DNA of 64,000 bases. Source: Clostridia bacterium. Its GTDB lineage: Bacteria; Bacillota; Clostridia; TANB77; CAG-465. The translations under genes and the position numbers were made by a program. The notes beneath the pieces were generated by a model that was given only the letters and a program-made list of their open reading frames with translations, was not told where the DNA came from and searched no databases. Location: contig JAGAIU010000015.1 in NCBI GenBank assembly GCA_017626395.1, positions 3,746 through 67,745 on the forward strand, read 5' to 3'. Positions 14,207 through 60,648 of the stretch are shown here, piece after piece (position 1 is the stretch's first letter; each line of letters begins with the position of its first letter).

Positions 14207-14212
14207 GGGGGA

Positions 14213-14413: not shown

Positions 14414-14421
14414 GAGGCAAT

Positions 14422-15938: not shown

Positions 15939-15949
15939 GAGGGGATGCT

Positions 15950-16453: not shown

Positions 16454-16456
16454 TAA

Positions 16457-16984: not shown

Positions 16985-16993
16985 GAGGTTGTT

Positions 16994-43292: not shown

Positions 43293-44603
43293 ATGCAAGC
43301 AGTTTTTTTAGAAGATGAAGGTGTAAAACAGTTTATAACTGAAGATGAATATGCAAAAATGTGCAAAAAAATTGAAAAAGCACATGATATGTTGGAAAAG
43401 AAAAATGGAAAAGGTAAAGAAATGCTAGGATGGCTTGATTTACCTGCAAATAGAGATGAAGAAGAAATCGAAAGAATCAAAGTTTGTGCAGAAAGAATAA
43501 AAAAGCAAGCTGATGTTTTTATTGTAATTGGAATAGGTGGTTCATATTTAGGAGCTAAAGCAATTATTGATCTTTTTGATAATACATTTGCAAATTTACA
43601 ATCATATTCAGAAAGAAAACATCCACAAATTATATTTGCTGGAAATAATTTAAGTGGTAAATATTTAAGAAATCTAGTTGAATATCTTGAAGATAAAGAT
43701 TTTGCTATAAATGTAATATCTAAATCTGGTTCAACATTAGAACCTGCGGTTACATTTAGAACTTTAAAAGTTGTATTAGAACAAAAATATGGTAAAGTAT
43801 TAGCTGCTTCAAGAATATATGTAACAACAGATCCTGAAAAAGGAATTTTACATGACTATGCTGTAAAAAATGAATATGAAATGTTTAAAATACCTAGAAA
43901 TGTTGGTGGAAGATATTCTGTTTTAACTGCAGTAGGATTATTACCAATGGCAGTTGCAAATATTAATTTTGAAGATGTTTTAGATGGTGCACAATTTGCA
44001 TCTTTTGTATTTAATAATAGGGAAGTTTCAAATAATGATTGCTATAAATATGCAGCTTACAGAAATATACTGAGAGAAAAAGAAAAAGATATTGAAATAC
44101 TTGCAAGCTATGAGCCAAGTTTTCAATACTTTATTGAATGGTATAAACAGTTATTTGGAGAGAGTGAAGGAAAAGATGGAAAAGGAATTTTCCCTGCTGG
44201 TGTAAATCTTACAACAGATCTTCATTCAATGGGACAATTAATACAAGATGGTAAAAGAAATATATTTGAAACAGTATTAAATGTCCAAGTAGACAGAAGT
44301 TTAACATATTTACCAGAATTAGAAGAAAATTTTGATAATTTAAATTATTTAGCTGGTAAAGAAATAGATTATATAAACAAACAAGCATTCAAAGGAACTT
44401 TAAAAGCTCACATAGATGGTAATGTTCCAACTATGGTAATTAATTTAGAAGATTTAACTGAATATAATGTAGGGCAACTTATATATTTCTTTGAAAAGGC
44501 ATGTGCAATAAGTGGCTATGTATTAGGAGTTAATCCATTTGATCAACCTGGTGTTGAAGCATATAAAAAGAATATGTTAAGTCTTTTAAAAGAAGAGGAA
44601 TAA
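43293..44603 (+). CDS. pgi: glucose-6-phosphate isomerase
   Basis: Firmicute-type PGI of about 440 aa with motifs GIGGSYLG, SKSGSTLEP and GESEGK. Confidence 0.85.
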   Translation: MQAVFLEDEGVKQFITEDEYAKMCKKIEKAHDMLEKKNGKGKEMLGWLDLPANRDEEEIERIKVCAERIKKQADVFIVIGIGGSYLGAKAIIDLFDNTFANLQSYSERKHPQIIFAGNNLSGKYLRNLVEYLEDKDFAINVISKSGSTLEPAVTFRTLKVVLEQKYGKVLAASRIYVTTDPEKGILHDYAVKNEYEMFKIPRNVGGRYSVLTAVGLLPMAVANINFEDVLDGAQFASFVFNNREVSNNDCYKYAAYRNILREKEKDIEILASYEPSFQYFIEWYKQLFGESEGKDGKGIFPAGVNLTTDLHSMGQLIQDGKRNIFETVLNVQVDRSLTYLPELEENFDNLNYLAGKEIDYINKQAFKGTLKAHIDGNVPTMVINLEDLTEYNVGQLIYFFEKACAISGYVLGVNPFDQPGVEAYKKNMLSLLKEEE

Positions 44604-44607
44604 TAAC

Positions 44608-45354
44608 ATGAAAAATATAAGTGTATTGAATTCCTTTGATATTAAGATTATAGCTTTAATTACTATGATAATTGATCATATAGGATATTTTTTCTATTAT
44701 GCATTAAGTAGTGATGTATATAATGTATGTAGAATAATTGGAAGATTATCTATGCCATTATTTGCTTTTTTAATATATCAAGGATTTACACATACTAGTG
44801 ATTTTAAAAAATATTTAAAAAGATTAATGCTATTAGCTTTAATAACCCAGCTTATTGTTATAGGGATAGGAATATTTTCTAGTATTCTTGTGCCACAGTA
44901 TAATGTGATATTTTATAAAGAATTAAATATAGTTTTTTCTTTTTGCTTATCATTGGTATTATTAAAAGTAATAGATAAATATGTAAATATTGAAAAGAAA
45001 AGCTTTAAGAATACTATTGTATTTTCTTTAGTAATAATATCATTTGCTATTTTATATTTGATTTTGAATATAGATTATGGATTACTTGTTCCTGCTATAT
45101 TAGTTAGTATGTATATATATGACAAATATATAGGAAAGTGTAGTAGAATATTTAAGATGCTTTATGGAATAATAACTATAGCTATATTCTTATTTATATA
45201 TCATGAAAGTCTTATAAAATTTAGTATTTTAGCAATAATACCTATGATATTATATAATGGAAAAAAAGGTGATGGAAATAAATACTTTTTTTATTGTTGT
45301 TATGTTATACAATTCATAGTTCTATATTTGTTAGGAATAATAATGTATATATAA
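44608..45354 (+). CDS. TraX-family membrane protein (F-pilin acetylase-like)
   Basis: IKIIALITMIIDHIGYFF matches the start of the TraX family. Polytopic. A 4-nt gap separates it from pgi. Confidence 0.55.
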   Translation: MKNISVLNSFDIKIIALITMIIDHIGYFFYYALSSDVYNVCRIIGRLSMPLFAFLIYQGFTHTSDFKKYLKRLMLLALITQLIVIGIGIFSSILVPQYNVIFYKELNIVFSFCLSLVLLKVIDKYVNIEKKSFKNTIVFSLVIISFAILYLILNIDYGLLVPAILVSMYIYDKYIGKCSRIFKMLYGIITIAIFLFIYHESLIKFSILAIIPMILYNGKKGDGNKYFFYCCYVIQFIVLYLLGIIMYI

Positions 45355-45479
45355 TGAAACGTTTACATAAATGTTTACAAATTAAAATTATTGTGATATA
45401 ATGTCAATATCGCAGTAATTTTTTTTACGATTAAAACATAAGATTAAATATATAAAAGAACACAAGGAGGAACAAAATA

Positions 45480-46094
45480 GTGGAAAATTATATGGAGAAT
45501 AATAGTGTTATAATAGGTGGAGAAATTGTTGAAGGAATAGAGTTTAGTCATGAAATATATGACGAAAAATTTTATAAATTTTCAATATTGACTAAAAGAT
45601 TAAGCGAATATGAGGACGTATTACCTGTTATAGTTTCTGAAAGATTAATAAATTTAGATGAAATACAAGTAGGTAAAATTGTTAGAATTGAAGGTCAATT
45701 TAGATCATATAATATGCAAACAGAAACTAAAAACAAATTAGTTTTATCTATCTTTGTAAAAGAAATAGAATTTGCTGAGTCGGATGTTATGACTTTAAAT
45801 GATGCTAATTTTGTGGGATATATTTGTAAAGCACCTATTTATAGAAAGACTCCTTTAGGAAGAGAAATAGCAGATGTTTTAATTGCTGTAAATAGAACGT
45901 ATAAAAAATCAGATTACATTCCTTGTATATTATGGGGAAGAAATGCTAAATTTTGTGAAAATATAGAAGTAGGAACTCTAGTAAAAGTAAATGGAAGAAT
46001 TCAGTCTAGAGCATACGAGAAAAAACTTGAAAATGGTGAAATATTAAAAAAAGTTGCTTATGAAGTATCAGTATCAAAATTTGCGAAATCTTAA
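45480..46094 (+). CDS. SSB-like OB-fold protein (putative single-stranded DNA-binding protein)
   Basis: The C-terminal half (ILWGRNAKF...VNGRIQSRAYEKK) resembles an SSB OB-fold core. It lacks an acidic tail. Confidence 0.4.
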   Translation: MENYMENNSVIIGGEIVEGIEFSHEIYDEKFYKFSILTKRLSEYEDVLPVIVSERLINLDEIQVGKIVRIEGQFRSYNMQTETKNKLVLSIFVKEIEFAESDVMTLNDANFVGYICKAPIYRKTPLGREIADVLIAVNRTYKKSDYIPCILWGRNAKFCENIEVGTLVKVNGRIQSRAYEKKLENGEILKKVAYEVSVSKFAKS

Positions 46095-46126
46095 TAATTA
46101 CAACAGTCTAGAAATGGGCTGTTTTT

Positions 46127-46642
46127 TCATTGCAAAAATTCTAAAGGATTAATACTAATCTCACCTTTAAATATTGAAAAGTGTAAATGTGGACCAGTAG
46201 TATTTCCATTCATAATACCACTAGATAAATATTTGGGACCAACATACCCAATAACATCTCCTGTATTTACATATTGACCAGCTTCAACAATAAAATTTTC
46301 AGATAAATGACAATATAAACTTTTTAAATCATCGTTATGAGATATAATTATTGTATTACCATAACCATCTTCTAAAAATGCTGCATATTCTATATATCCA
46401 GAATTGGTAGCGAATACTTCGCTATTCATTGGTGCTAAAAAATCTATACCATTATGAAAATTAGAAGTGCCATACATTTCTCTATTTCCATAGTATGAAG
46501 AAATGGCTGTATATTCAGTAGGATATTGGAATTCTAAACTATTTGAAGTACTATTTAAATTGAGTAATATAAGCATAACATAAAGAAAAGATAATAATAA
46601 AATCATTAAATCACCCCTTGATATAATACATACTTTTAGCAA
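46127..46642 (-). CDS. M23-family peptidoglycan metalloendopeptidase
   Basis: HNGIDF...GNTIIISHND...TGPHLHFSI, a LytM/M23 signature. N-terminal signal anchor. Confidence 0.75.
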   Translation of the reverse strand: MLKVCIISRGDLMILLLSFLYVMLILLNLNSTSNSLEFQYPTEYTAISSYYGNREMYGTSNFHNGIDFLAPMNSEVFATNSGYIEYAAFLEDGYGNTIIISHNDDLKSLYCHLSENFIVEAGQYVNTGDVIGYVGPKYLSSGIMNGNTTGPHLHFSIFKGEISINPLEFLQ

Positions 46643-46794
46643 TGAAGTAAAGAAAAAATAGCTTCAAAAAAGTGGCAAAATTTGCAAAAATGTACATAAA
46701 AAAGTATGCTTAAAGCTTAAAAAGTACACAAAACTATTGATTATTGCTCCAAATTTTGGTATAATTATATTAGGAAAAAAGGAGGGAGTTTATA

Positions 46795-47142
46795 ATGAAA
46801 AAATTTATGTTAAGAGTTATGCCAATAATCATGGTTTTACTTGTTGTAGTAGCTACTCCAGTATTTGCTTTAGATTTAAATGAAACTTTTAATAATAATA
46901 ATGCTGGTGGTTCTAATACTGCTAACAGAATTATAAACAACGTTTGGGGTACTGTTTTATTAGTATTACAAATACTAGCAGTTGCTGCTATCGTATTTGC
47001 CGGTGTAAAATATATGTTCGCTGGTGCTGATGAAAAAGCTACTATTAAAAACGGTTTATTAGTTTTAGCAATAGGTGCTATATTGGTATTCGGTGCTTCT
47101 ACAGTTGTTAAATTATTAATGGATGTAGTAAGTGAAGTTTAA
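46795..47142 (+). CDS. TrbC/VirB2-like T4SS pilin candidate 1
   Basis: Signal peptide (cleavage near VFA-LD) followed by two hydrophobic helices that flank GVKYMFAGADEKA. 115 aa. Own RBS and terminator. Confidence 0.5.
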   Translation: MKKFMLRVMPIIMVLLVVVATPVFALDLNETFNNNNAGGSNTANRIINNVWGTVLLVLQILAVAAIVFAGVKYMFAGADEKATIKNGLLVLAIGAILVFGASTVVKLLMDVVSEV

Positions 47143-47160
47143 TCCGAAAAAAAATTAAAA

Positions 47161-47188
47161 AATCAGGTGTAAAAGCCTGATTTTTTTT
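47161..47188 (+). terminator. intrinsic terminator between pilin genes 1 and 2
   Basis: AATCAGG-TGTAAAAG-CCTGATT followed by TTTTTTTT. Confidence 0.7.
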
Positions 47189-47248
47189 CATATATATGAT
47201 ATAATATAATTAATATAGATATGTTCTATGGAAAGGGAGGAAAAAAGT

Positions 47249-47641
47249 ATGAAATTAAATAAAATAATTACAGCTTTAGTTTTTGTGATAGTAATTGGTA
47301 TAAGTTCTAAAATAGTATGTGCAACTGATGGATTTGATGCTAACATTCTAAACGAAATTAATGTTAATGTAAATTCAACTCCGAAATACAATGAATTGAA
47401 TAATCTTAGAAATAATGTTTTAGGAATTATTATAACAGTAATGCAAATGTTATCAGTATTTGGAATTGTTTTCTGTGGTATAAAATACATGTATGCTGGA
47501 GCGGATCAAAAAGCACAACTAAAAAAAGGTTTAGCAGGTTTAGCAATTGGATGTATTATTGTATTTAGTGGAGCAACTATATCTAAATATGTATTAGATA
47601 TATTCTCTGATTTTAATACGAATTACGTAAATACTCCATAA
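47249..47641 (+). CDS. TrbC/VirB2-like T4SS pilin candidate 2
   Basis: Signal peptide followed by helix-GIKYMYAGADQKA-helix. Start at ATG 47249 after a GGGAGG RBS. Confidence 0.5.
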   Translation: MKLNKIITALVFVIVIGISSKIVCATDGFDANILNEINVNVNSTPKYNELNNLRNNVLGIIITVMQMLSVFGIVFCGIKYMYAGADQKAQLKKGLAGLAIGCIIVFSGATISKYVLDIFSDFNTNYVNTP

Positions 47642-47750
47642 TCATTACAAAAATAATACTTGTTTGTTAAATTTTTGTTAAAGTTTTTATATGTATAGAA
47701 AAATATATAATAATAAATTATAATTTTAATATGGAAAGGTGTGAGAAAAA

Positions 47751-48365
47751 ATGAAAAAAGCAATAAAAACATTAAGAAATATAGTATGTTGCTTTATACT
47801 TTTGATGATAGTAAGTACAACTTTTTCTCCTGTATATGCTGGATTTTTTGAAGATGCGAGTAAATGGTGGGATAAAGGTGGTACAGATGCTGGAATGTCA
47901 AATGCAATGTCAAGCATTACAAGTGAGATAGGTGACTATGTAAGAATCGTTGGAACAGTAGTTATAGTTATTGCAACAATAGTACTAGGTGTAAGATATA
48001 TTTTCGCAAGTGCTGAAGGAAAGACAGCTGCAAAAGAAAATGCAATGAATTTACTGGTAGCATGTATATTATTCTTTGGATGGTCTAACATAAGTAAATT
48101 GTTGTACACTGGTACAGAGTTCGCTTTTCATGCTAATACATTTGAAAGTGCTGTAGGTACAGTATTTGCAGTATTTAAATTTTTAGCAGAAGCAATCGCT
48201 TTAGTGGGAATACTATATGTTGGTATAAAATATATTTTTGCAGGAGCAGAAGGAAAAGCAGATTTAAAAAGCAAATCATTTCCTTTCATCATTGGTATAA
48301 TTTTAACATTTGCTGCAGTTGAAGTTCTAAATATTATATCAAATATAATTACTGAAACTGTTTAA
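47751..48365 (+). CDS. tandem-duplicated TrbC/VirB2-like pilin candidate 3 (two pilin modules in one ORF)
   Basis: Two repeats of the helix-loop-helix module: GVRYIFASAEGKTA and GIKYIFAGAEGKAD. Confidence 0.45.
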   Translation: MKKAIKTLRNIVCCFILLMIVSTTFSPVYAGFFEDASKWWDKGGTDAGMSNAMSSITSEIGDYVRIVGTVVIVIATIVLGVRYIFASAEGKTAAKENAMNLLVACILFFGWSNISKLLYTGTEFAFHANTFESAVGTVFAVFKFLAEAIALVGILYVGIKYIFAGAEGKADLKSKSFPFIIGIILTFAAVEVLNIISNIITETV

Positions 48366-48388
48366 GTTTAATAGTATAGGAGGTTTAT

Positions 48389-48784
48389 ATGGGAAATTCA
48401 TATTTTGTCCCAAGAAATGTAAAAGGCGAAAGTAGAATACTATATATATTTACGATGAAGTCTTTTATATTCACATTGGCTGCGGGAGTTGTTGGTATTG
48501 GTGTTTGGTTTTTAATCTCTAGTCTATTTGCCATAGATAGTCTCGTAGCTATGTTGATTTGTGTGGCAATTTTCGCTGTTATTGGATATCTCTTGGGAGC
48601 GTTAAAAATTCCAGATTCACCGATAATGGGGATTTTTAGAAAAGCTGGTGGAGAATATTTAAGTGATATAATTCTTAGATTTATTACTTTTGGTGGAAAA
48701 AAGAAAATTTATTTGTATAATTACAACAGGGAAAAAAGTGTTACGGAAGAAATGCAAGCTGATAAAAAGGAGGCAAGAAAGTAG
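48389..48784 (+). CDS. PrgI/VirB3-like small membrane protein
   Basis: 131 aa with two central TM helices, immediately upstream of the VirB4-like ATPase region. Confidence 0.4.
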   Translation: MGNSYFVPRNVKGESRILYIFTMKSFIFTLAAGVVGIGVWFLISSLFAIDSLVAMLICVAIFAVIGYLLGALKIPDSPIMGIFRKAGGEYLSDIILRFITFGGKKKIYLYNYNREKSVTEEMQADKKEARK

Positions 48785-50167
48785 ATGGAATATATTATGA
48801 TTGGTGTAATTGTAGTAATCATGATTATATGTGTAATTATGTTTGTTTCAATTGGAAAGAAAGATAAAAAAGAGTCAACTAAAAGTAATACTCAAGCAAC
48901 AACTAACAATACAACTAGTGCTCCAAAAGATAAAGTAAAAAAAGAAGATGTTTTTAAATTTATGGAGTTTGATAGAATATCTGACAACATGATTATTCAA
49001 AATGGCGGTAAAAGATATACTATGGCAATAAAGTGTAAAGGTATAAATTACGATTTGATGTCAGAAGTCGAACAAATGGCCGTAGAGCAAGGATTTATAA
49101 CTTTTTTGAATACATTAAAATATCCAATTCAACTTTATGTACAAGCTCAAAACATAGATTTAAAACATGTTGTTAATGGATACAAAAAAAATATTGCAGG
49201 TTTAAGAGAAGAATATAATAAATATAATAAACTTTCAGAAGAAAAAAGTGGAATATTTGATATCAACAAAGATGAAGTTGAGGAAATATTAAATGAAAAA
49301 ACTAAAATAATGAATGTTTATGAATATGCTAACGATATTATATCTTATGTCGAAAAAATGAGTGTTAATAAAAATTTATTACAAAGAAATTTCTATGTTT
49401 TAGTATCATATTCTAAAGGCGATATAGTAGCTGCAGATAAATTTACTAAAGAAGAAATAAATGAAATGTGCTATACAGAATTGTTAACAAGATGTAATTC
49501 TATAATAAGTGCTCTTGCTTCTTCATCAGTAAGTGGTAGAGTATTAAACTCTAATGAATTGGCAGATTTATTATATATTGCATATAACAGAGATGATAAG
49601 AGCTTAATGGGAGTTAGAGATGCACTAGAATCTGGATTCTATAGATTATACTCTACTTCTGTAGATGCCTTCCAAAGAAAAGATGAAATGCTAAATGAAG
49701 CTATATCTGCTGAAGCTAGATTAAAAGCTATAATGAGTTTAGAAAAACTTATAGAGGAAGATAATTATCAAACAGATTCAATGCTTGAACTTGAAACAGA
49801 AGAACAAATTGCTAAAGAAGCAACAGAACTTATAAAATCAGATAATAATATTGCTCCAGATATTAAACAAAGAGCGACTGATGACATAATTGAAGAATAT
49901 AGAGAAATAAAGAAAGAATATTTACCTAAAATAGAAGAAGAAAAAGCAGAAAAGGCAAAGGAAGTTCAAGAGGAAAAAGAAATTTTAAAAGAAAAATATG
50001 AAAATAGTGATTTGCATAGATTAAATAACCATAAAAAAGAAGTTATTAATTTATATAATGAAGAAATAAAACAAGAAAAAGAAGAATTAAAAAAAGTTAT
50101 AGATGCTAATTCAGAAGGTACTTCTTATGAAGAAGAAGATTCTGGTGAAAATGACTCTATATTATAA
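48785..50167 (+). CDS. T4SS-associated membrane-anchored protein of unknown function (E/K-rich coiled-coil C-terminus)
   Basis: N-terminal TM helix. Operon position between the VirB3-like and VirB4-like genes. Confidence 0.3.
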   Translation: MEYIMIGVIVVIMIICVIMFVSIGKKDKKESTKSNTQATTNNTTSAPKDKVKKEDVFKFMEFDRISDNMIIQNGGKRYTMAIKCKGINYDLMSEVEQMAVEQGFITFLNTLKYPIQLYVQAQNIDLKHVVNGYKKNIAGLREEYNKYNKLSEEKSGIFDINKDEVEEILNEKTKIMNVYEYANDIISYVEKMSVNKNLLQRNFYVLVSYSKGDIVAADKFTKEEINEMCYTELLTRCNSIISALASSSVSGRVLNSNELADLLYIAYNRDDKSLMGVRDALESGFYRLYSTSVDAFQRKDEMLNEAISAEARLKAIMSLEKLIEEDNYQTDSMLELETEEQIAKEATELIKSDNNIAPDIKQRATDDIIEEYREIKKEYLPKIEEEKAEKAKEVQEEKEILKEKYENSDLHRLNNHKKEVINLYNEEIKQEKEELKKVIDANSEGTSYEEEDSGENDSIL

Positions 50168-50186: not shown

Positions 50187-52196
50187 ATGTCTAAAAAAGT
50201 TAAAGAAAAAAAAGTTTCTAGAAAAGAACTAAGAAGAATGCAAGCTAGACTTGATGAATTAAATAAACTTGGAGAATTAGACGGTAGCGATAGTGTAGAA
50301 TATAATGGAATGAACTTAAATAAATCAACTCTACATGATCTTTTAGCTCCTTCAGGGATAGATGCAACACACTATGATTATTTAGAAATATTTTCAAAGA
50401 TATCTAGATTTGCTAGAACATTTTATGTTACAACTATTCCAAGACAAGCTACATTCCCATATTTCTTATCAGGAATATATGAATTTGGAGATGTAAACAC
50501 CTCTGTATATATTACTCCTGTGCCAGAAAGTGTTTCACAAAATGATTTAAATAAAACAATTGTAGAATTACAGTCTGAAAGATTTGTTGCACAAGATAGA
50601 GGAGATATTAACAGAGAAGCTACTTTATCTACAAAACAAGCAGAAGCAGAAGCTTTGAGAGATCAGATTGCTGCAGGATATAATAAATTATTTGAAGCAA
50701 CCATTATATGTACAGTTTTTGCATATAGCAAATTAGAATTAGATAAATTGTCTGAAATATTATCAATGGAAGCATCTAAAAATCAAATTGGATTGAAAAC
50801 TGCATGGGCTTTGCAAGAAGAAGGATTTAAATCGAATCTTCCATTAAATAATAATAGAATAACAAGAAAACATACTTTCGATAGAGGTTCAATGGCTACA
50901 GTATTCCCATTCGTTAATGCTGAAGCAGGAATGGATACTGGTATTCCTATAGGAATAAATGTTCAAACAGGATTACCGCTTCTATTCGATAACTTCAACC
51001 ACACATTAACAAACTATAACATGATTATATTTGGTAAATCAGGTTCTGGTAAATCTGTTACAATTAAAACTATAATGGCTCGTTCAGCTATATTAACAGG
51101 TGTTGAAAACTTAGTACTTGATGCTGAAGGAGAATATGTTGTAGTTGCTGAAGCACTTAGAGGAATTAACATAGATGTTAGTCCAAAGAGTGATACAATA
51201 ATAAATATCTTTGATCTTGAATCTGAATTAGTAAAAGACGAGATTACAGGTAAAGAAAGATATGAATTAAATATCGAAAATAAAGTAGAAGACGTTACAC
51301 AAGCTCTAGTAACAATGGCTAGAGGTGCTACAAAATCTACAGAAGTTACAGAGTTAACAAAACAAATAATAGCAGAAATTGTTTTAGAATGTTATAAAGC
51401 TAAAGGTATTACAAATGAAGTTGAATCATTATTTTCAGATACTGATGGCGGGTTAGGAAGAGCTAAAAAGCCGATGCCTACAATCAGTGAATGGTATGAC
51501 AGACTTGTAAGAAAAAGAGAAGAAAATGAAAATGATACATACAGATATCATTACGATTATCTAGTAAAAGTTATGAAACAATTCTGTAGAAAATATAATG
51601 GACAAATGGCTTACTTTGATGGTCAATCTACATTCGAACTATTAGAAGAATGTCCGTTTATAAATATTAACATATCGCAACTTGAAGAAAGATTTGCAAG
51701 ACCACTTGCACAACAAATATTACTTTCTTGGATTTGGGAAAAATATGTTAAGAAAAATAGTGAAGATAAATCGAAAGCAAGAAAGAAAAGAGTTCTTGTA
51801 GATGAGGCATGGATGTTATTAGCATATCCAGAAGCCGTAGATTTCTTAAATACAATGGCTAGACGTGCAAGAAAAAGAAATGTATCTCTAACAGTTGTAT
51901 CTCAAAAATTCCAAGATTTCTATGAGAATAAAGCCTGTCAGGCAGTATTAACATCTGCTGAAACAAAATTATTCTTAGCTCAAGATAAATCTGAAATTGA
52001 ATATTTAAAAGAAGTATTTAAGTTGAGTGATGGTGAAGCTCAATTCTTAATAACATGTTCTAGAGGTGAAGGATTAATAAAAATTGGATACACTTCAGCT
52101 GTTATTGCAATTAAGCCTACAGAAAGAGAATTTAAATTCGTAGAAACAAACTTAAATAAATTAAGAGAAGCAGAAAATAATAAAGGAAGGGAGTAG
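50187..52196 (+). CDS. VirB4/TrbE/CagE-family T4SS ATPase
   Basis: Walker A FGKSGSGKSVT at about residue 285 and Walker B RVLVDEAWMLL (the DEAW motif is typical of VirB4). Confidence 0.7.
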   Translation: MSKKVKEKKVSRKELRRMQARLDELNKLGELDGSDSVEYNGMNLNKSTLHDLLAPSGIDATHYDYLEIFSKISRFARTFYVTTIPRQATFPYFLSGIYEFGDVNTSVYITPVPESVSQNDLNKTIVELQSERFVAQDRGDINREATLSTKQAEAEALRDQIAAGYNKLFEATIICTVFAYSKLELDKLSEILSMEASKNQIGLKTAWALQEEGFKSNLPLNNNRITRKHTFDRGSMATVFPFVNAEAGMDTGIPIGINVQTGLPLLFDNFNHTLTNYNMIIFGKSGSGKSVTIKTIMARSAILTGVENLVLDAEGEYVVVAEALRGINIDVSPKSDTIINIFDLESELVKDEITGKERYELNIENKVEDVTQALVTMARGATKSTEVTELTKQIIAEIVLECYKAKGITNEVESLFSDTDGGLGRAKKPMPTISEWYDRLVRKREENENDTYRYHYDYLVKVMKQFCRKYNGQMAYFDGQSTFELLEECPFININISQLEERFARPLAQQILLSWIWEKYVKKNSEDKSKARKKRVLVDEAWMLLAYPEAVDFLNTMARRARKRNVSLTVVSQKFQDFYENKACQAVLTSAETKLFLAQDKSEIEYLKEVFKLSDGEAQFLITCSRGEGLIKIGYTSAVIAIKPTEREFKFVETNLNKLREAENNKGRE

Positions 52197-53675
52197 GTGA
52201 AAAAAATGAAGAAATTTTTAAAATATTTTCTTATAGTATTCTTAGCAATATTTTTGATAGAATATGCTCAAACCAATGTTTTTGCAGCTGTTAATAGTGG
52301 ATATTATTCACCACCAATAGTAGAGGAAAGTACTCTAACTGATGATGGGACAAACGATGATGTTAAATCAAAAACAGTTGGAGATACAATAATGCAATAT
52401 ATAGGAAGATTTATATATTCTGTTGCTAGTATTGTTGAAATTTTGATAACAAATTTCTCTAAATGGTTATTCAAGGTAGATTGCTTTCCATGGGAAGATT
52501 ATATTGTATATAATTCTTTACCATATCTAGATATAAACTTTTTTAATTATGGCCAAGGATCGATATTTGATGTGGGCAGTGTAAGTAAAGTAGGAGATAT
52601 GATTAGAACAGTATACTTTTCTTTACTAACAATGGCAATTTCTATTATAGGTATAGGTGTTGCAATTACAGCTATTAGATTAGCAATTTCTAGTATTGCT
52701 GCTGAAAAAGCAAAATATAAAGAGGCAATAACTAAATGCTTATATACCGTTGTAATGCTATTTTGTGTACACTTTTTAATTTCATTTATTTTTTACTTAA
52801 ATGAAACGATTGTTTCAGCATCTTCTACAATGCTAAAAAATCTTATAAACAAAGAAGAGCAAGAGATGTTGGAAGCAGCAGCTAAAAATGTTGACACTAG
52901 CGCAGTAGACAAATTTATTAGAGAAAACTCAATGGCCCACCCAGAAGATATGGGTGATTCGGTTGCGACTTTATTACACCCATCATATGTAGCTACATGG
53001 GATGCTTTAAGCTTACACGAGGATTTTGATGATTGGGTAGCTGCTTATCAAAATAGATATAATACGCAAATAAGTTCATTAAATAATTTTGTAGAATATG
53101 GCTGTGATACTTCTATGCCAAAGAAATTTTATGCATATCTTTTAAAGAAAGATAGTTATAAAAATAGTAGTCGTATAGATTTATTATTTGTTGGCGGTGA
53201 GTTGATAGGAGCAAGTTTTGGATCTGTAGAGAGTCCAGATAGAGTTTGGTCATCATTATTAAATGTTCAAAATGATGTAGGTAATTTGATAAGTGCATAT
53301 AGAACATATAAAATTAATACATATTTTGGACAAGAAGATACTTCTCTTGAAACATTAAGAGCTTCTTATTCAGAATCTCAACGTAATACTGGATGGTATA
53401 AAGTAATAGAAAATTGTTATTCAACTTTAATTAAAGCAGATGAACAAGCTATACCTAATGTTATATCAAGTTTAGCAGAGCTATTTAAAGATAATGCAAC
53501 AGGTGGTATTGCTAGCAATGATATAGATTATGTTTCAGTATTACTATATGCTATTCTTTTAATTCAATCTTTAATGTTGCTTATAAATTACATAAAGAGA
53601 TTATTCTATGTTACATTATTATCTTTATTAGCACCAATTGTAATAATATATGATTTCTTTATTAGTGCAATATAA
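52197..53675 (+). CDS. VirB6/TrbL-like polytopic membrane protein (putative)
   Basis: Signal peptide and at least 5 TM helices. Hydrophobic C-terminus LLYAILLIQSLMLLINY... Confidence 0.4.
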   Translation: MKKMKKFLKYFLIVFLAIFLIEYAQTNVFAAVNSGYYSPPIVEESTLTDDGTNDDVKSKTVGDTIMQYIGRFIYSVASIVEILITNFSKWLFKVDCFPWEDYIVYNSLPYLDINFFNYGQGSIFDVGSVSKVGDMIRTVYFSLLTMAISIIGIGVAITAIRLAISSIAAEKAKYKEAITKCLYTVVMLFCVHFLISFIFYLNETIVSASSTMLKNLINKEEQEMLEAAAKNVDTSAVDKFIRENSMAHPEDMGDSVATLLHPSYVATWDALSLHEDFDDWVAAYQNRYNTQISSLNNFVEYGCDTSMPKKFYAYLLKKDSYKNSSRIDLLFVGGELIGASFGSVESPDRVWSSLLNVQNDVGNLISAYRTYKINTYFGQEDTSLETLRASYSESQRNTGWYKVIENCYSTLIKADEQAIPNVISSLAELFKDNATGGIASNDIDYVSVLLYAILLIQSLMLLINYIKRLFYVTLLSLLAPIVIIYDFFISAI

Positions 53676-53694
53676 TGGGAAATGAGGTGAAGAA

Positions 53695-55062
53695 ATGAAA
53701 AATAAAGTATTTGGTGTATGGTTAAGAGAACTTTGCTCATTAGTTTTTGTACAAAGTATACAAGCATTACTTTTTACTATAATGCTTACATTGGTAGTAA
53801 GATTGTACATTGATAAAAACGATAGTGCTGCGGCTCAACAATCTATGGGAGTATATGCTATTTTAGTTATGACAATTATTCCAAAAGTAGAATTACTTGT
53901 AAAAAGGATTTTTGGATTAGGCTCTGGTGTAATGGACGATAGCATGATGGGTGGAAAAAATTCGTTATTAAAAACAGGTTTAGCTATTAGAGGAGCTGCC
54001 AGTTTGTTAAATAACGGAAGAAAAGTTGCAGGAGGCTTGGTTGGATTAGGCTCTGTTGCATTTGGAACAACTAGTAAGAGAACGAGAATTGCAGAAAATA
54101 ATGCAAAAGCTGCAGGAGAATTGAGTAGTGGAAATCCAACTTCTACATCAGCTAGTAGCTCTAGTACACAAACTCGTAGAATTTCAGGTAGTACATCTGG
54201 TGGTGCAAGAGGAAATTTAAGTCTTGGCGATTTAACTACTGCTATAAAAAATGCTAATTCAGAAGATCCACAAGAAGCATTACAAAAAGCTAAACATGAA
54301 GCTAGACAAAAATCATTAGAAAGCTTAAAAGCTATAACATCTGGTGTTACTGAAACAGTAGGTGCGATAGGAGGTGCCTCACTTGGTGCTGTTGTAGGAT
54401 TAGGAATGGGTGGAGATGATATATTAACAAATGCTGCTATTGGTGCTGGTATAGGAGATAAGGCTGGGAAATTAGCTGTAGATGCTACTATTGGCAATGC
54501 TGCTAAATTTGAAAATTGGCAATATGACTATAGTACAGTTTCTCAAAAATTAAAATCATCTGAAGCTAAATTAAAGAAAGCAGAAGAAGAAAAAGAAGCT
54601 CAAAAAGCATATGAAGCAACTGTGGCGAAAACACAAAATGTAAAAGGAGCAAGAGGCACAGTTTCATCGGTTGGAGCAACTAGAGTAACAAATTCTTCAC
54701 CAGCAACTGCTACTAAAAAGAATGTTTCAAAAAATTTAAGTGCACCAGCAAAACAATATTATGAAAAAGCCAAAGCGGCTAAAGCTCAAGGTAATATGGA
54801 AGAATATAAGAAAAATAGAGAACTAGCTGCTGCTGTTATAAAAGGGGAAAAAACTATGAAGAACCCAACAAGACCAGTCCAAACATCAGCATCTTCAAAT
54901 TCTAGTGGACCAATAACAACACCATCTTCTAGAGATAAATCTGTTGTAAAAAGTATAGCTAGACATAAAAAGACTAATATACAATCAGATAGAAAAATAC
55001 ATGGTCCTGCAAATAATGCACCAACTATTAATAATAATATAAATAGTATTGATGGAATGTAA
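53695..55062 (+). CDS. membrane protein with a long Gly/Ala/Ser-rich low-complexity region
   Basis: 2-3 N-terminal TM helices followed by G/A/S/T-rich repeats. Confidence 0.3.
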   Translation: MKNKVFGVWLRELCSLVFVQSIQALLFTIMLTLVVRLYIDKNDSAAAQQSMGVYAILVMTIIPKVELLVKRIFGLGSGVMDDSMMGGKNSLLKTGLAIRGAASLLNNGRKVAGGLVGLGSVAFGTTSKRTRIAENNAKAAGELSSGNPTSTSASSSSTQTRRISGSTSGGARGNLSLGDLTTAIKNANSEDPQEALQKAKHEARQKSLESLKAITSGVTETVGAIGGASLGAVVGLGMGGDDILTNAAIGAGIGDKAGKLAVDATIGNAAKFENWQYDYSTVSQKLKSSEAKLKKAEEEKEAQKAYEATVAKTQNVKGARGTVSSVGATRVTNSSPATATKKNVSKNLSAPAKQYYEKAKAAKAQGNMEEYKKNRELAAAVIKGEKTMKNPTRPVQTSASSNSSGPITTPSSRDKSVVKSIARHKKTNIQSDRKIHGPANNAPTINNNINSIDGM

Positions 55063-55079
55063 TTTAAAGAGGTGATTTA

Positions 55080-55619
55080 GTGAATAAAATTATTAATTTT
55101 TTTGAAGAAATGAGTATAAGAGATAAAATAATTACTTTAGTTGTTATCTTAATTTTATTAATAATAGTTACAACTCAATATGAAAAATATAAAGAAAATG
55201 TTAATAATATATATACCTCTAAATTAGATTATAAGTCACTTACATCAGAATCACTATTAGAAAATTATTCTGAAAATTATAGTAATAGAGATGTTTATTA
55301 TACAATTAATCAAATAATAGAAAATATGAACAATGAGTATGATAAAAAGAAAAATAATTATAAAATGTACTATGAGACTGTTGATTATAATTATAGTAAA
55401 AAAATATCAAAAAAAACTTTTTCAAATAAGCTATATAGCTTATTTGAAAAAGTAAATAATTCTGATGGTGAATATGGAATACGTATGTATTGTGAAAATA
55501 TAATTTCTAATACTTTTGTAGTACAAGTGTATGTTGATGATACTATAATAGGTTATATAGGAATAATTTTTAATACTGATAACAGTACATATTCTATTTT
55601 CTATGTTGAAACATTATAG
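55080..55619 (+). CDS. hypothetical membrane-anchored protein (GTG start)
   Basis: RBS AGAGGTGA, one TM helix. Confidence 0.3.
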   Translation: MNKIINFFEEMSIRDKIITLVVILILLIIVTTQYEKYKENVNNIYTSKLDYKSLTSESLLENYSENYSNRDVYYTINQIIENMNNEYDKKKNNYKMYYETVDYNYSKKISKKTFSNKLYSLFEKVNNSDGEYGIRMYCENIISNTFVVQVYVDDTIIGYIGIIFNTDNSTYSIFYVETL

Positions 55620-55639
55620 TATAATTTTGGAGGTAATAT

Positions 55640-56479
55640 ATGATTAAACAATTTTTAAAAGATAATGAAGAAAATGTTATATCTTTTGTTACTATATTTA
55701 TTATAATAGTTGGTGTAATAATTATTATTTCAATGTGGATATCCAATGTTTTCAGTAAAAAAGAAGAAGAACCACGTATTAATTCGTATACGAATATAAG
55801 TTATTCTGAAATTATGAAAGAGGAATACGAAAATGTTCTATATAGACTATTAAAAGTTAATAACTATGAACAATTATATGAGAAAATAGATAAAAATTAT
55901 TTATTAAAAAATAATTTAGAATCAATTGATGCTAAAAATTTTTTGATAAAAAATAATTATATAGGAAATGAAATAGAAATAATATCTTGTAATGTTATAA
56001 AATCTGATGAAATATACATATTTAGGTTTTATTATAAGAATTATTCAGCTTATAAACATGTAAATGTAGTAGAATATAAGCCAAACGAATATTATATTTC
56101 TTTTGAAGAAGAAGTAAATTCATTGTTAGATAAAAAATCTATAGTTAAAGGCGAAGAAAATGGAATAAGTTATGAGTTAGAATTATTAGATATTAAAACT
56201 GATTCAGTTAAATTTAAAATTAATATAACTAATAATAATTCTTTACCGATAAATATAGATTTTAATGATATTAATTCTTTTACTATTTTAGGTAATGAAT
56301 ATAGCATACCACTTGCTAGTGTAGTAGCACAAGATAAAAATGAAATAACTCAATATTCATCAGTAAATAAAGAATTATATTTTTTAATTTCAAATAATGA
56401 TTACGAAGTTTGTGATGGTATACAAATAAATAACATAGAAATGAACGGAGAATATTTTGATATTTTAATTGAATTATAA
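55640..56479 (+). CDS. hypothetical membrane-anchored protein
   Basis: RBS GGAGGT, one TM helix. Confidence 0.3.
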   Translation: MIKQFLKDNEENVISFVTIFIIIVGVIIIISMWISNVFSKKEEEPRINSYTNISYSEIMKEEYENVLYRLLKVNNYEQLYEKIDKNYLLKNNLESIDAKNFLIKNNYIGNEIEIISCNVIKSDEIYIFRFYYKNYSAYKHVNVVEYKPNEYYISFEEEVNSLLDKKSIVKGEENGISYELELLDIKTDSVKFKINITNNNSLPINIDFNDINSFTILGNEYSIPLASVVAQDKNEITQYSSVNKELYFLISNNDYEVCDGIQINNIEMNGEYFDILIEL

Positions 56480-56490
56480 GGAGGTAAAAT

Positions 56491-59400
56491 ATGAACGAGT
56501 ATCCAAACGAGCCAAATCAGCTTGGAAATCAAGAAAATAATCAACTCGAAAATCAACAACAAGTAAGCAAAAGTTATACTCCTTCTAATATATCTAAAGC
56601 TACTAATTTAGGAAATAATATTTATAGAGCTACAAAAAAAGCTGCAAATTTGGTTAAATCTGCTGTAAAAGTTATGGCTAAAGTTGCAGGAAATATAATG
56701 AAATTTATTATCACTAATCCCTATCTTTTAGTAGCAATCGTAATAATATTTTTTATCTTAGTAATAGTAGTTGCGATAGCAAATAATTGGAAAAATCTAT
56801 TTACTTTTGAAAATGTAGATAATAGTTCTAAATCAGTTATTGAGTCGTGGGATGAAAGTAATATGACTGAGCAGCAAGAGTTAGCTAAAAGTTCTTATGA
56901 AAAAACAGGCTCATTAATGGATTTTACTGTCAATGATTTAAATAAATTTAAGGGAGATGTCGAGAAAAAAAGTGAAGGATTAAAATTTAATCAATCTCAA
57001 TTAGAGATTTATAAAGGATTACTAAAAGAATTTGGAACTAGCAACGTTCTTAGCTCTCAAAGAATTGTAAGTCCCGATGACAAAGTGTCGCTTTATGAAC
57101 ATATGTTATCTATTTCTAAATATGATTTTAATGCTGTTAAATGGAAAAGATATGGACATGGCATAGATGGCGAAGACTCTCCTTTGAAGGAAGATTTAGA
57201 GTTAGGAGTAAGATATCCAACTGATCAAAACGAAACAGAGTATGAAACTTTTTCTAGTTTGTTAAAGCCATATTTATTGTCTTATGAAGTACCTTTATCG
57301 TTCTTTTCTGGATTGATTTCAGATTCTAATTCTACAATTGATGCTTCAACTGCTATGACATATATGATAACTAAATATGCTTTGAGCGATATTACTGTAA
57401 ATCGATATGATGTTCAAAAATATAATTTAGCAACTTATTATAGAGATTATGACTATAATGTTTATTATTCTTCATTTAATGTAACATTTACTCCACAATC
57501 TGATGGAACTTATTCTATAAGTTACTCAGGTTTAAATCAAAATCATGTTTCTACAGGCCATGTGAATACAGCTCAAAATTCTAACGGAGAGCTAGATGTT
57601 ATGTTAGAAACTGCTATACCTGATAAATCTTATGTTTCATATGATAATAGATATTATATAGCAGAAGCTAATATATTTGATTTAAAAATAAATAACACAT
57701 ATAAATATACACCTTATTCACAATCAGATGTAGATAATAGAGTGTATGCAGATTCAACTGATGTTACAGAAGAATACTATGCAGAAGATATAAATGGACA
57801 AAATAAAGTGGAATTTATAAATATGCCTTTAGGAGCTTGTTCAAATGTTAGTGATGCCTTAACTAGTATATCTTTAGCAAACCATTCAGGACATGGTGAA
57901 GGTACTACCTCAGAAAGTGGTGCTATTACGTATACTTTTTCTAGTGGAAACTATGAAGTTAGAGAGGGAAAGACATTTAATGTAAACAGAACATGGGAAG
58001 ATAAATTATCTCAAACTGAAAAAAAAGAAGAATTTTACAAGTTAAGTGATCTTATACAATATAATCAAAATTGTTCTGTTGGTACTTTTTCTGAAGAAGA
58101 TTTGAGGAGTGATGATAAGAGCTTTAATTATTATACTTTATTAGAAGAACAAGAAAGATTGAATAGAATAGATTTCTTTAATGCAAATCCTAATATTTAT
58201 TATAAATATTTATTAGATGTTCCCTATGCTAAATATGTTGGAAGACATAGAGATGCATTAGAACAATTATGTTATTATAACTTAACGGAAAATTGGCAAA
58301 ATTTAGTTGATGAGTATAAGAATTTTCCATATGCTTATGGTAAAACATATGATTTTCATAAATCAGGTTCTGGAACAACTTATGTTTCAGGTATAGCATT
58401 GTTAAAACAATATATACACACTTTTGAAGGAGACGGAAGCTATTCAGGTGGTGGAAGGTTTGATGAAAATTATAATAAAGTAAGTAATGATGCAGATGCT
58501 AAATATTATAAAGTATATAGTGCAAATGATGGTGTGCATACTGTTGGATATGGTGTAAACATGGAAGCAAATGCACCTGCCTTTTTAGAACATGGTATAG
58601 ATGTTTCTACAGTTAATTTTGGAGATTATATTGACAAAGCTATTGTAGATCAGATAGAAGATAAAATAATACAAGGTAGAATAGATACAATAAAAGGTTT
58701 AACAAATGGAATTGAACTAACAGAATATCAATTACATGCATTGGTATCGCATTCATATGTTGCAGGTAATATAAATTATTTTGTAGATGCATACACACAA
58801 TATTGGAATCAAGAAAATGATGATAAGTATGAAGAACTATATGAGAAATATAAAGATAGCCCAGAATCAGCTTCAACTATAATGAGTGAAATTGATTTCA
58901 GCAATGGAATATTTGACGCATTTTTCTCTTTCTATAATAATAGAGCTCTAAATGAAAAATATGCTGGATATGCAACAAGACAAAAATCTGAATATACATT
59001 ATTTTCAAGTGGATATTATAGTACATTAAAAAGATTTTGGACTAGTAGTGCAGGTACTCCAAATGGACTTCAATTAACAAATGGTGATACGATAGATGAT
59101 AATGCTTGTCTAGAATTAGAACTTTGGTATGAACAAAATGTATTTGGTGGAAAATTCTCTGCTGGTACAGATTTATATGGATATAAAGCTGAAAAGGCAA
59201 CAGATTCACAAAATAACGATTCTAAAAATGCTGTTAATCCTGAATATGATGCTTTAGCTACAGGATCATACTATTATCAATGTCCATGGTGGTCTAGACT
59301 TAGAGCTAATATGTATTTAAGAGATATGGGGTCAGATAAAGTTTTAACTGGTGCTACTGGTGATGGTAGAGATGCAGCTAGAAAAGCTGCTTCACAGTTA

Positions 59401-59646
59401 GGATTAGAGCTTAATACTTCTATAGATGGAATAAGACCATTCTCTATTATTTCTTTTGATAAACCAGGAAGTGGACATGGACATACTGCTTTTGTTGAAG
59501 CTGTTACTAGCGAATATATAATTCTTAGCGAGTGTTCATCAGGATGGTATTGGAATGGAATAAGTATAGTTCCAAGATCAAGATTAACAAGCACAAGCTC
59601 ATCTTATTATTTTACAAGTTCTGTTTGTTTAACAGATGCTTTATAG
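56491..59646 (+). CDS. VirB1-like bifunctional cell-wall hydrolase: membrane anchor, lysozyme-like domain and C-terminal CHAP peptidase domain
   Basis: TM helix at about aa 70-95. Central lysozyme-like region (GVHTVGYGVNMEAN...ELTEYQLHALVSHSYVAGN). C-terminal CHAP with Cys (YYQCPWWSR) and His (GHGHTAFVEAV). Confidence 0.6.
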   Translation: MNEYPNEPNQLGNQENNQLENQQQVSKSYTPSNISKATNLGNNIYRATKKAANLVKSAVKVMAKVAGNIMKFIITNPYLLVAIVIIFFILVIVVAIANNWKNLFTFENVDNSSKSVIESWDESNMTEQQELAKSSYEKTGSLMDFTVNDLNKFKGDVEKKSEGLKFNQSQLEIYKGLLKEFGTSNVLSSQRIVSPDDKVSLYEHMLSISKYDFNAVKWKRYGHGIDGEDSPLKEDLELGVRYPTDQNETEYETFSSLLKPYLLSYEVPLSFFSGLISDSNSTIDASTAMTYMITKYALSDITVNRYDVQKYNLATYYRDYDYNVYYSSFNVTFTPQSDGTYSISYSGLNQNHVSTGHVNTAQNSNGELDVMLETAIPDKSYVSYDNRYYIAEANIFDLKINNTYKYTPYSQSDVDNRVYADSTDVTEEYYAEDINGQNKVEFINMPLGACSNVSDALTSISLANHSGHGEGTTSESGAITYTFSSGNYEVREGKTFNVNRTWEDKLSQTEKKEEFYKLSDLIQYNQNCSVGTFSEEDLRSDDKSFNYYTLLEEQERLNRIDFFNANPNIYYKYLLDVPYAKYVGRHRDALEQLCYYNLTENWQNLVDEYKNFPYAYGKTYDFHKSGSGTTYVSGIALLKQYIHTFEGDGSYSGGGRFDENYNKVSNDADAKYYKVYSANDGVHTVGYGVNMEANAPAFLEHGIDVSTVNFGDYIDKAIVDQIEDKIIQGRIDTIKGLTNGIELTEYQLHALVSHSYVAGNINYFVDAYTQYWNQENDDKYEELYEKYKDSPESASTIMSEIDFSNGIFDAFFSFYNNRALNEKYAGYATRQKSEYTLFSSGYYSTLKRFWTSSAGTPNGLQLTNGDTIDDNACLELELWYEQNVFGGKFSAGTDLYGYKAEKATDSQNNDSKNAVNPEYDALATGSYYYQCPWWSRLRANMYLRDMGSDKVLTGATGDGRDAARKAASQLGLELNTSIDGIRPFSIISFDKPGSGHGHTAFVEAVTSEYIILSECSSGWYWNGISIVPRSRLTSTSSSYYFTSSVCLTDAL

Positions 59647-59655
59647 GGGGTAATT

Positions 59656-60648
59656 ATGAACGATAATAAAAGAAAAATAGTTAGTATTTTTAGTATAATT
59701 GTAGTTTTATTAATTGTAGTAATTATAATTGCTGGCATCATAATTATTTCAAACTTATTTAAAGATGATTCTTATGAAAGAGATGACACAGATAGAGAAT
59801 TAAGACAAGAAGCTATTGATTTATTTGAAGAAAAAAGTGGAAAAATTGTAACAGTATCAAGCATGGTAGATTTTAATACAGTAAAAGCATGTATTCAAAA
59901 GTTTTACTCATATTATCCTTCAATGTATGATGAAAAAGTAATAAATGGAGAATATGGTGAAAATATCAATCTTGATTATTATAAACAAAGAACTTATTAT
60001 TTCTTAAGTTCAGGATATTGTACTAGAAATGATGTGACATTAGATAATATAAATTCAAAATTGCCAGAATTAAAAGGAACTTTCTTACCAGAAATATATT
60101 CAATGTATTACATTACATATGATCAAAATGTTAAACTATATTTTGTAACTGGTATGTTAAGGGATGAAAGTAATAAAGGAATACCTTTTTCAATAAATGT
60201 ATACATGGATACTGTTAATAATTATTTTGAAATAGATTTAGATAATTTATTGCAAAAAAAATACGATGAGTTAAAAGTCGGAGAAGAAATTACAGTTTCA
60301 ATTCCTGAAAATGTATTAGGAAGAACATATAATAAATTTGGTCCAGCTGCAACAACGTATGGTGACTTTTCAAAAATGTTATTTGATAATATAGTTAATT
60401 TATTATTATACAACCCAGATAAAGCATATGAGCTGCTAAGTGAAGCTGGAAAAGCAAGATTTTCTACAGTTGAAGATTTAAGAAATTTTGTTACTACTAA
60501 TAAAAAAGAAATATTACTTTTAAGTTTTAAAATGTATGAAAATAATTATGTAGATGGGAAGTTAAACGTTAACTTATATGATAAAAATTCAGAATATATT
60601 TTTAACGTCATATTGGAAGACTTTTCTTCTTTCAAATTTTCTTTTTAA
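59656..60648 (+). CDS. hypothetical membrane-anchored protein, last gene of the cluster
   Basis: RBS GGGGGGT, N-terminal TM helix, followed by a terminator. Confidence 0.35.
   Translation: MNDNKRKIVSIFSIIVVLLIVVIIIAGIIIISNLFKDDSYERDDTDRELRQEAIDLFEEKSGKIVTVSSMVDFNTVKACIQKFYSYYPSMYDEKVINGEYGENINLDYYKQRTYYFLSSGYCTRNDVTLDNINSKLPELKGTFLPEIYSMYYITYDQNVKLYFVTGMLRDESNKGIPFSINVYMDTVNNYFEIDLDNLLQKKYDELKVGEEITVSIPENVLGRTYNKFGPAATTYGDFSKMLFDNIVNLLLYNPDKAYELLSEAGKARFSTVEDLRNFVTTNKKEILLLSFKMYENNYVDGKLNVNLYDKNSEYIFNVILEDFSSFKFSF

Follow-up and report, generated by a model that had tools for sequence, protein, structure and literature searches.

Why does an uncultured gut bacterium carry three adjacent pilin-like genes, one of which holds two pilin modules in a single open reading frame (ORF)? 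The question is raised by a stretch of 64,000 nucleotides, here called the window, from contig JAGAIU010000015.1 of the Clostridia bacterium assembly GCA_017626395.1. The three genes, designated g1, g2, and g3, are located directly upstream of genes for a type IV secretion system (T4SS). The comparisons described below show that the locus is a T4SS pilin set that is fixed in the chromosome and vertically inherited in a clade of uncultured, low-GC, spore-forming gut Clostridia. As judged by their sequences, the three genes are shown to belong to three old, non-redundant, orthologous classes of the VirB2 family.

A preliminary description of the locus had recognized three neighboring VirB2/TrbC-like genes with four copies of one module, and had proposed that they be compared with pilin profiles. 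Both the reading and the comparison bear up. The pattern of the conserved loop, G[VI][KR]Y[MI][FY]A[GS]A[DE][EGQ]K, has exactly four matches, at residue 70 of g1, residue 77 of g2, and residues 80 and 158 of g3. All three products score above the Pfam gathering thresholds (GA): g1 with PF04956 (TrbC; 34.5 bits, GA 27.9) and PF18895 (T4SS_pilin; 30.5 bits, GA 26.6), g2 with PF18895 (29.5 bits, GA 26.6), and g3 with PF04956 in two stretches (38.5 bits, GA 27.9). They also have the signal peptide, the pair of hydrophobic helices with a short charged loop between them, and the PrgI and VirB4 neighbors of the family, so that on profile scores, architecture, and context all three are VirB2/TrbC family members. 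In the NCBI annotation, g1 is named 'TrbC/VirB2 family protein' and g3 'hypothetical'. The four modules are related to one another well above chance by alignment; the hairpins of g1 and g2 share 50% identity, and BLASTP aligns g1 with module 2 of g3 (E = 1e-13, 45.8 bits) and the two modules of g3 with each other (E = 9e-08, 30.8 bits).

The module had been described as a signal peptide with a helix–loop–helix, present four times. There are indeed four hairpins, but only three signal peptides; hydropathy gives a signal-like N-terminal segment and two hydrophobic helices in g1 and in g2, and four helices in g3, with no signal peptide before module 2. All of the modules are very hydrophobic. Putative signal peptidase I sites, read by the −3/−1 rule, are VFA/L, VCA/T, and VYA/G. 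The ribosome-binding sites (RBS) reported for g1 and g2 are present, and g3 has one as well. For g2, the start is taken as the ATG at 47249, which has the RBS AGGGAGG 8 nt upstream, while an alternative ATG at 47228 has no RBS.

AlphaFold2 (AF2) models agree with the hydropathy plots on the expected two-helix topology. Mature g1 is predicted as a hairpin of helices 14–50 and 53–89 (pLDDT 82.4), and g3 as two consecutive hairpins with helices 47–85, 88–118, 131–163, and 166–203 (pLDDT 70.5). The g3 protein can be divided into a signal peptide (residues 1–30), a conserved FFxxAxxW N-terminal motif, module 1 (about 52–119), a linker, and module 2 (about 130–204). After signal cleavage, hydropathy and the models place the N-terminus and the linker between the g3 modules outside, and both basic loops on the cytoplasmic or lumenal side. 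The top Foldseek matches of the g3 model are V-type ATPase 16-kDa proteolipid chains, which are not significant (E = 0.45), and the best profile match among PDB sequences is a phage coat protein (E = 0.019) over 30 residues only. Thus, the structural predictions are consistent with a pilin fold, but are not diagnostic of one.

Is the double module of g3 a peculiarity of this genome? Homologs with the same two-module architecture number 190, at coverage above 84%. The g3-family profile finds 105 clusters (50% identity) at E ≤ 1e-30 and 574 at E ≤ 1e-10, and in nearly all of the best 150 clusters both modules are covered. Each module has its own signature, GTxVIxIATIxLGxKYMFGSxxxKxxxKExLxxLLVACxFFFGW for module 1 and YVGxxYIFxGAxGKxxLKxKS for module 2, and the mature N-terminus of the family has a conserved DFWxxAxxW motif. 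The preliminary description had seen in g3 an internal tandem duplication. The fusion of two modules in one ORF stands, but a duplication within this gene does not: the family is old, and the two modules are the most divergent pair, with a mean identity of 0.20, as compared with 0.30 between module 2 and g1-type pilins. DNA repeats among the pilin genes are limited to the loop codons, at 65–77% identity. Because the modules are so divergent, module 2 is closer to g1, and the DNA likeness is confined to the loop codons, the fused double pilin is judged to be ancient, arising either by fusion of two already diverged paralogs or by a very old duplication. Two further ideas, that g3 is an artifact of assembly or of a frameshift error that fused two adjacent pilin genes, or that it is a duplication private to this genome and very recent, have nothing in their favor beyond the repeated motif in one ORF. 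They are refuted by the homolog counts and the separate conserved signatures; the missing signal peptide of module 2 also speaks against them.

Many relatives of g3 are much longer, at 300–764 aa, with long extracellular extensions that contain no Pfam domain and that may be adhesin or display domains. Extensions of 150–560 aa are carried by many family members, among them P0418, P0423, P0374, P0361, and P0470, and mostly stand between the signal peptide and DFWxxAxxW, and one extension in the family is C-terminal, with repetitive, Ig-like-looking sequence. Separately, we observed a Cys at position 105 of g3, in the second helix of module 1 (LLVACxFFFGW), which adjoins the invariant FFGW. It is invariant in 22 aligned family members and present in at least 90% of 93 in a wider alignment, which is unusual for a transmembrane (TM) helix. 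A scan of viral contigs gave no g3 relatives.

The single-hairpin genes fall into two further classes, and the three are denoted S (g1 type), GF (g2 type), and D (g3 type). The S class comes first in the gene order and is the most conserved, with a mean within-class identity of 0.59; the nearest homologs of g1 are 77–80% identical. The GF class, which has GxGF[D/N] at its mature N-terminus and lies just upstream of the double pilin, has a within-class identity of 0.39, and the D class has 0.47 for each module. Of the 29 complete loci, 17 have exactly the order S–GF–D; the others carry extra copies. In g2 and in ORFs of other loci (L003, L011, and L028 among them), the GxGF[D/N] motif is found 2–4 residues past the predicted signal cleavage site, and could be a processing or recognition site. 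The coordinates of these genes and of the other features of the window are given in Table 1.

Table 1. Features of the window discussed in the text (positions are those of the window).
Feature	Position	Strand	Length	Basis or remarks
BRO-N domain protein	9817–10677	−		phage-associated family
spoIIIA operon	12786–17542			spoIIIAA, AB, AE, and AF detected
VirD4-like coupling protein (T4CP)	25169–27667	−	832 aa	intact Walker A GATGTGKT; Pfam T4SS-DNA_transf, TraG-D_C
PGI	43293–44603			glycolytic enzyme, housekeeping neighbor
TraX-family gene	44608–45354			88.5 bits
SSB	45480–46094			two OB folds
M23 peptidoglycan peptidase	46127–46642	−		divergent, always adjoins pilin genes; Pfam M23 90.6 bits
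Promoter-like site before g1	46737–46765	+		TTGATT, 17-nt spacer, extended TG, TATAAT; 10/12 consensus matches plus TG
g1	46795–47142	+	115 aa	single-hairpin VirB2/TrbC-family pilin, candidate major subunit
Intrinsic-terminator-like hairpin with U tract	47157–47188	+		between g1 and g2
g2	47249–47641	+	130 aa	single-hairpin pilin, 'GxGF[DN]' class; mature N-terminus TDGFDAN
Promoter-like site before g3	47696–47724	+		TAGAAA, 17-nt spacer, TATAAT; 10/12 consensus matches
g3	47751–48365	+	204 aa	double-hairpin VirB2-family protein
PrgI-family (VirB3-like) membrane protein	48389–48784	+		Pfam PrgI 35.1 bits
Conserved 460-aa protein	48785–50167	+	460 aa	one N-terminal TM segment; weakly like the N-terminal part of mycoplasma ICE (integrative and conjugative element) VirB4
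VirB4-like ATPase	50187–52196	+		Pfam TraG P-loop, AAA_10, DUF87; NCBIfam CD1110-family VirB4-like, 225 bits
Four conserved, fast-evolving membrane/surface proteins	52197–56479	+	492, 455, 179, 279 aa	synteny, TM segments
First of these, multi-TM protein	52197–53675		492 aa	weak NCBIfam match of its type to MMCAP2_0566
Cell-wall hydrolase (VirB1-like role, predicted)	56491–59646	+	1051 aa	C-terminal CHAP; Pfam CHAP 30.8 bits
o330	59656–60648		330 aa	ORF

The window has a uniform composition of 27% GC and contains housekeeping genes for a Mur ligase, Ddl, SecA, Pth, TrpRS, Obg, and PGI. It also encodes the spoIIIA operon, so the host is a genuine spore-forming Firmicute. Homologs of g3 trace to uncultured low-GC Clostridia from the guts of humans, rabbits, mice, and chickens, with about 40 genomes at species level; Clostridium sp. 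CAG:465, CAG:921, and CAG:1219 are among them. A common gene order is seen in these species: an AMP-binding protein, a NadD-like protein, PGI, in some loci TraX, SSB, the M23 peptidase on the minus strand, two to four single pilins, one or rarely two double pilins, PrgI, the 460-aa protein, VirB4, one to four copies of the 492-aa type, the 455-, 179-, and 279-aa proteins, and a large hydrolase. The median identity to the window across these species is 78.8% for VirB4 and 71.4% for PGI, and the pairwise identities of the two proteins co-vary (Spearman 0.59, 153 pairs). The putative surface proteins of 492, 455, and 279 aa have only 26–30% identity, and the pilins also evolve far faster than VirB4.

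The T4CP gene stands apart from the other T4SS genes by about 20 kb, in a housekeeping neighborhood where ygjV-like and pth genes flank it. Its homologs, in more than 120 clusters, are 64–89% identical, and it adjoins pth, rplU, and rpmA in both of the divergent relatives whose context was examined. Searches with tblastn for the T4CP, the 330-aa ORF, the S1-domain protein, Pth, and YgjV in the loci of the relatives gave no match, the flanks of these loci being too short. The scan of the window ORFs covered almost every ORF of 100 aa or more and every one of about 300 aa or more, and it turned up no relaxase or integrase family. A DNA search of the 7.6-kb region against plasmids gave no match, nor did tblastn of g1 against plasmids, in which case low-complexity masking and divergence are the probable causes. 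Given the synteny, the conservation of VirB4, the site of the T4CP gene, and the negative searches for mobile elements, the T4SS is a core-genome trait under strong purifying selection. Among plasmid-borne VirB4s, the nearest are those on plasmids of Clostridium beijerinckii and Clostridium botulinum, at 40–41% identity, and upstream of each is a single protein of 136–138 aa with a signal peptide, two helices, and a weak PF18895 match. Since these VirB4s are preceded by a single candidate pilin, the three-class set is an elaboration within the present lineage of gut Clostridia.

Two further observations concern mobile-element genes. In a distant relative (locus L049, JGI metagenome 3300032167), a Replic_Relax protein (PF13814, 26.2 bits) is encoded at 6515–7534, just past the genes for the T4SS hydrolase and an S1-domain protein; the double pilin of this locus has 630 aa and is detached from the cluster. 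The Replic_Relax protein has no homolog in the window or in the other loci. The BRO-N gene of the window stands alone between SNF2 helicase and HD-domain genes.

How might the three genes be expressed? The preliminary description had placed a strong terminator between g1 and g2. The hairpin at 47157–47186 is real, with a 12-bp stem, a 6-nt loop, a U tract, a minimum free energy of −14.1 kcal/mol, and z = −4.6 against shuffled sequences; 'strong' is somewhat generous, as the stem counts A–U pairs from the flanking A and U tracts. Most of the related loci also have a terminator-like hairpin behind the leading pilin gene or behind the leading block of single pilins, though its sequence is not conserved. 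Terminator-like hairpins (ΔG ≤ −8 kcal/mol) are found in 60% of the spacers of at least 60 nt between pilin genes, as compared with 0.14% of shuffled spacers. The g2–g3 spacer has no significant RNA structure, and an Rfam search of positions 44000–50000 found no family, that is, no known riboswitch or leader. In the window, the PrgI gene starts 23 nt 3' of g3. Across the lineage, this junction varies from an 8-nt overlap to a gap of 112 nt, mostly 10–45 nt, and it is always free of a terminator. Because the short, terminator-free gap is kept throughout the lineage, g3 is the first gene of the PrgI–VirB4 machine operon.

The VirB4 and the T4CP are members of conjugation-type families, their nearest NCBIfam models being of the CD1110 and CD1115 families. 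At the position of the large hydrolase, the relatives have M23, SLT, or glucosaminidase versions. The multi-TM 492-aa protein occurs in one to four tandem copies in relatives (L018, L021, L026, L030, and L031). VirB6 is amplified alongside VirB2 in the Rickettsiales, and the tandem copies parallel this amplification by analogy, the VirB6-like nature of the protein being putative. About 60% of the loci have the TraX-family gene, three genes upstream of the pilins, with PGI on one side and SSB on the other. TraX of the F plasmid acetylates pilin, and the TraX-family protein may be a pilin maturation enzyme, or merely a neighbor. The SSB has no acidic C-terminal tip and is beside the locus in all of the relatives; it is not counted as part of the T4SS, as it matches the general clostridial two-OB SSB equivalog NF004476 (290 bits).

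What is the function of three pilin classes in one machine? We lean, without firm commitment, toward a heteromeric VirB2-type pilus or wall-spanning conduit that is built from major, minor, and pseudo-dimeric adaptor subunits and belongs to a fixed chromosomal T4SS. In the proposed mechanism, g1 would be made in excess and polymerize as the bulk subunit of the filament or conduit, with the terminator after g1 setting its stoichiometry to the downstream genes, and g2 would be a minor subunit. The g3 protein would be made in step with the machine as a pseudo-dimeric subunit that fills two neighboring protomer positions, and it could act as a nucleator, a cap or tip, an anchor, or an adaptor, with its N-terminal region displayed outside the cell, an arrangement that the topology predicted above supports. 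In the V-type ATPase c subunit (16-kDa proteolipid), a helical hairpin has been duplicated and fused into a four-helix subunit of a membrane assembly. This is an analogy only, without evidence of homology, and it illustrates how one fused subunit may fill two places in an assembly. The assembled machine would export a DNA or protein substrate to neighboring cells. Export is likelier than DNA import because a highly conserved coupling protein is present, and on the gene content, substrate export rather than DNA uptake is the most likely function. Between the two outcomes offered in the preliminary description, a heteropolymeric pilus or pilin variation, the heteropolymer is the better idea; variation does not agree with orthologous classes whose order is kept in most of the 29 loci.

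Several points weigh against a heteromeric filament or conduit. The organisms are uncultured, with no filament seen to date. The assignment of putative major and minor roles rests on conservation and on promoter and terminator logic. The promoter-like sites are consensus matches in a 27% GC genome, with 25 found as against 15 expected by chance, and about 40% of the spacers between pilin genes have no detectable terminator. The confidence of the g3 model is moderate. A fold search of the g1 and g3 models against the PDB gave no significant match, helical hairpins being generic, and the g3 and g1 family profiles found no solved pilin among PDB sequences. Without a relaxase among the window ORFs scanned, DNA is unproven as a substrate, and a relaxase could be encoded elsewhere in the genome. 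Finally, the general view is that the T4SSs of Gram-positive bacteria have no pili (PMC12857230). A more ambitious form of the proposal, in which a clade-wide core T4SS builds a heteromeric VirB2-type filament whose covalent pseudo-dimer displays variable domains for an obligatory cell-to-cell interaction, is possible but rather doubtful.

The last of these objections leads to the main rival, that there is no extracellular pilus, and that the modules form a short channel or stalk through the membrane and the thick wall, or membrane-embedded assembly factors, with the classes as fixed parts of the channel. No pili have been seen in the Gram-positive T4SSs studied so far (PMC12857230), and there are several wall hydrolases at the locus, the M23 peptidase and the 1051-aa CHAP protein. 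The predicted co-transcription of g3 with the machine genes and the hydrophobicity of all of the modules would suit a short conduit as well. However, the g1 gene is served by a promoter-like site and a terminator of its own, which would suit a bulk subunit. The extracellular extensions of g3 relatives, which reach about 450 aa, suggest surface display, and the rate of evolution of the pilins and the 492-, 455-, and 279-aa proteins is far above that of VirB4, as is usual for exposed parts. We regard a short conduit or membrane assembly as unlikely.

Variation for antigenic or host-range purposes is improbable. Here the pilins would be interchangeable, with alternating expression, a model put forward for Bartonella TrwL, Anaplasma VirB2, and the Patescibacteria arrays. 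The number of pilin copies does differ among the relatives (two to four single and sometimes two double), the pilins evolve fast, and some of the genes have separate promoter-like sites. An array of this kind has interchangeable paralogs without fixed classes; here, the three classes are orthologous over about 40 species, with their own signatures and a kept order, and the g1 class is strongly conserved. Furthermore, there are no long DNA repeats, and so no extended DNA identity for recombination or gene conversion.

Could the genes instead be part of a plasmid or an integrated conjugative element, with pilins that make an ordinary mating pilus for its transfer? The conjugation-type families of the VirB4 and the T4CP would agree with this, as would the location of the closest plasmid VirB4s on Clostridium plasmids. 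The mobile-element reading is largely refuted, and what chance is left to it is very small: the locus is syntenic with housekeeping flanks in about 40 species, VirB4 and PGI co-vary, VirB4 being the more conserved, and the T4CP gene is fixed at a different housekeeping site. Nor is there an integrase or a relaxase among the window ORFs scanned, a shift in composition, a plasmid DNA match, or a relative on viral contigs.

Comparison with known systems places the locus between several of them. With the VirB2/TrbC pilins (Agrobacterium VirB2, RP4 TrbC; PF04956) and PF18895, the three proteins share profile scores above threshold, the signal peptide, two helices, the short basic loop, and a neighborhood with VirB3-like and VirB4 genes. 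They differ in having a monoderm, spore-forming host, three conserved classes instead of one gene, one covalent double hairpin, and a chromosomal, vertical inheritance instead of a plasmid or ICE. Pilus formation, cyclization, and acetylation are only putative here.

The closest parallel in organization is in the Patescibacteria, where a chromosomal monoderm-type T4SS with arrays of 2–11 pilins is widespread and, in Southlakia, essential (PMC12102498, PMC10633639). The system of Southlakia epibionticum is likewise chromosomal, lineage-wide, and of the monoderm type (MPF_FATA-like, PrgI-containing). It shares the tandem arrays of divergent VirB2-like pilins, the lack of a relaxase nearby, and the small genomes of uncultured or host-dependent organisms. 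By contrast, the present host is a true Firmicute with a spoIIIA operon, in records labeled Clostridia, and it has a strongly conserved T4CP, whereas Wang et al. found no recognizable coupling protein in Southlakia. The present set has three fixed classes, and its double-hairpin member is not reported in PMC10633639 or PMC12102498.

VirB2 is also present in multiple copies in Anaplasma and Ehrlichia and in the Bartonella Trw system (PMC12102498). These share tandem virB2-family genes (trwL in Bartonella), a chromosomal T4SS, and reduced genomes. They are, however, diderm pathogens in which the copies are thought to give antigenic or host-range variation, while here the genes are orthologous classes, one of them fused.

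Among monoderm mobile elements, the same architecture is found in NCBIfam NF045849, the 'Mbov_0395 family pilin-like conjugal transfer protein' of mycoplasma ICEs, and in the 136–138 aa proteins of the C. botulinum and C. beijerinckii plasmids, which have the same position upstream of a PrgI-sized gene and VirB4. The likeness to these single pilins is below threshold (25.5 bits against a cut-off of 40, and for PF18895 19.2 against 26.6). The monoderm ICE and plasmid systems have a single gene, no double hairpin, and mobile replicons. A 'conserved pilin' has been published for the clade TANB77, possibly the present clade or one next to it, but it is of the Tad/Flp type, with a CpaF/TadA ATPase, TadB/C, and type IV-filament pilins, and T4SS, VirB2, and TrbC are not mentioned (PMC11680825). 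That pilus is also a conserved chromosomal locus of uncultured small-genome gut Clostridia, but it is a different machine, and the identification of the published pilin with the present locus is rejected.

What does the locus mean for this group of bacteria? According to a 2025 review (PMC12857230), the Patescibacteria are the only exception to a general absence of VirB2 from Gram-positive T4SSs, and PMC12102498 states likewise. The locus is a counter-example to this claim in genuine spore-forming Firmicutes; models for monoderm pilin-like proteins, PF18895 and NCBIfam NF045849, are already in the databases. It is a candidate evolutionary source of the Patescibacteria system, or a parallel to it. 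We found no description of a double-hairpin VirB2 architecture in the searchable literature.

This uncultured clade is abundant in the guts of humans and animals, and a conserved surface machine bears on its ecology and its interaction with the host. If the proposal of a heteromeric VirB2-type filament is true, it would be the first in a true Gram-positive, and the purifying selection on its T4SS would be as strong as that on central metabolism. As in the Patescibacteria, the machine would then serve an obligatory interaction between cells, such as the exchange of DNA, proteins, or nutrients with neighboring cells, rather than the transfer of a mobile element, and dependence on such neighbors could help to explain the resistance of this clade to cultivation.

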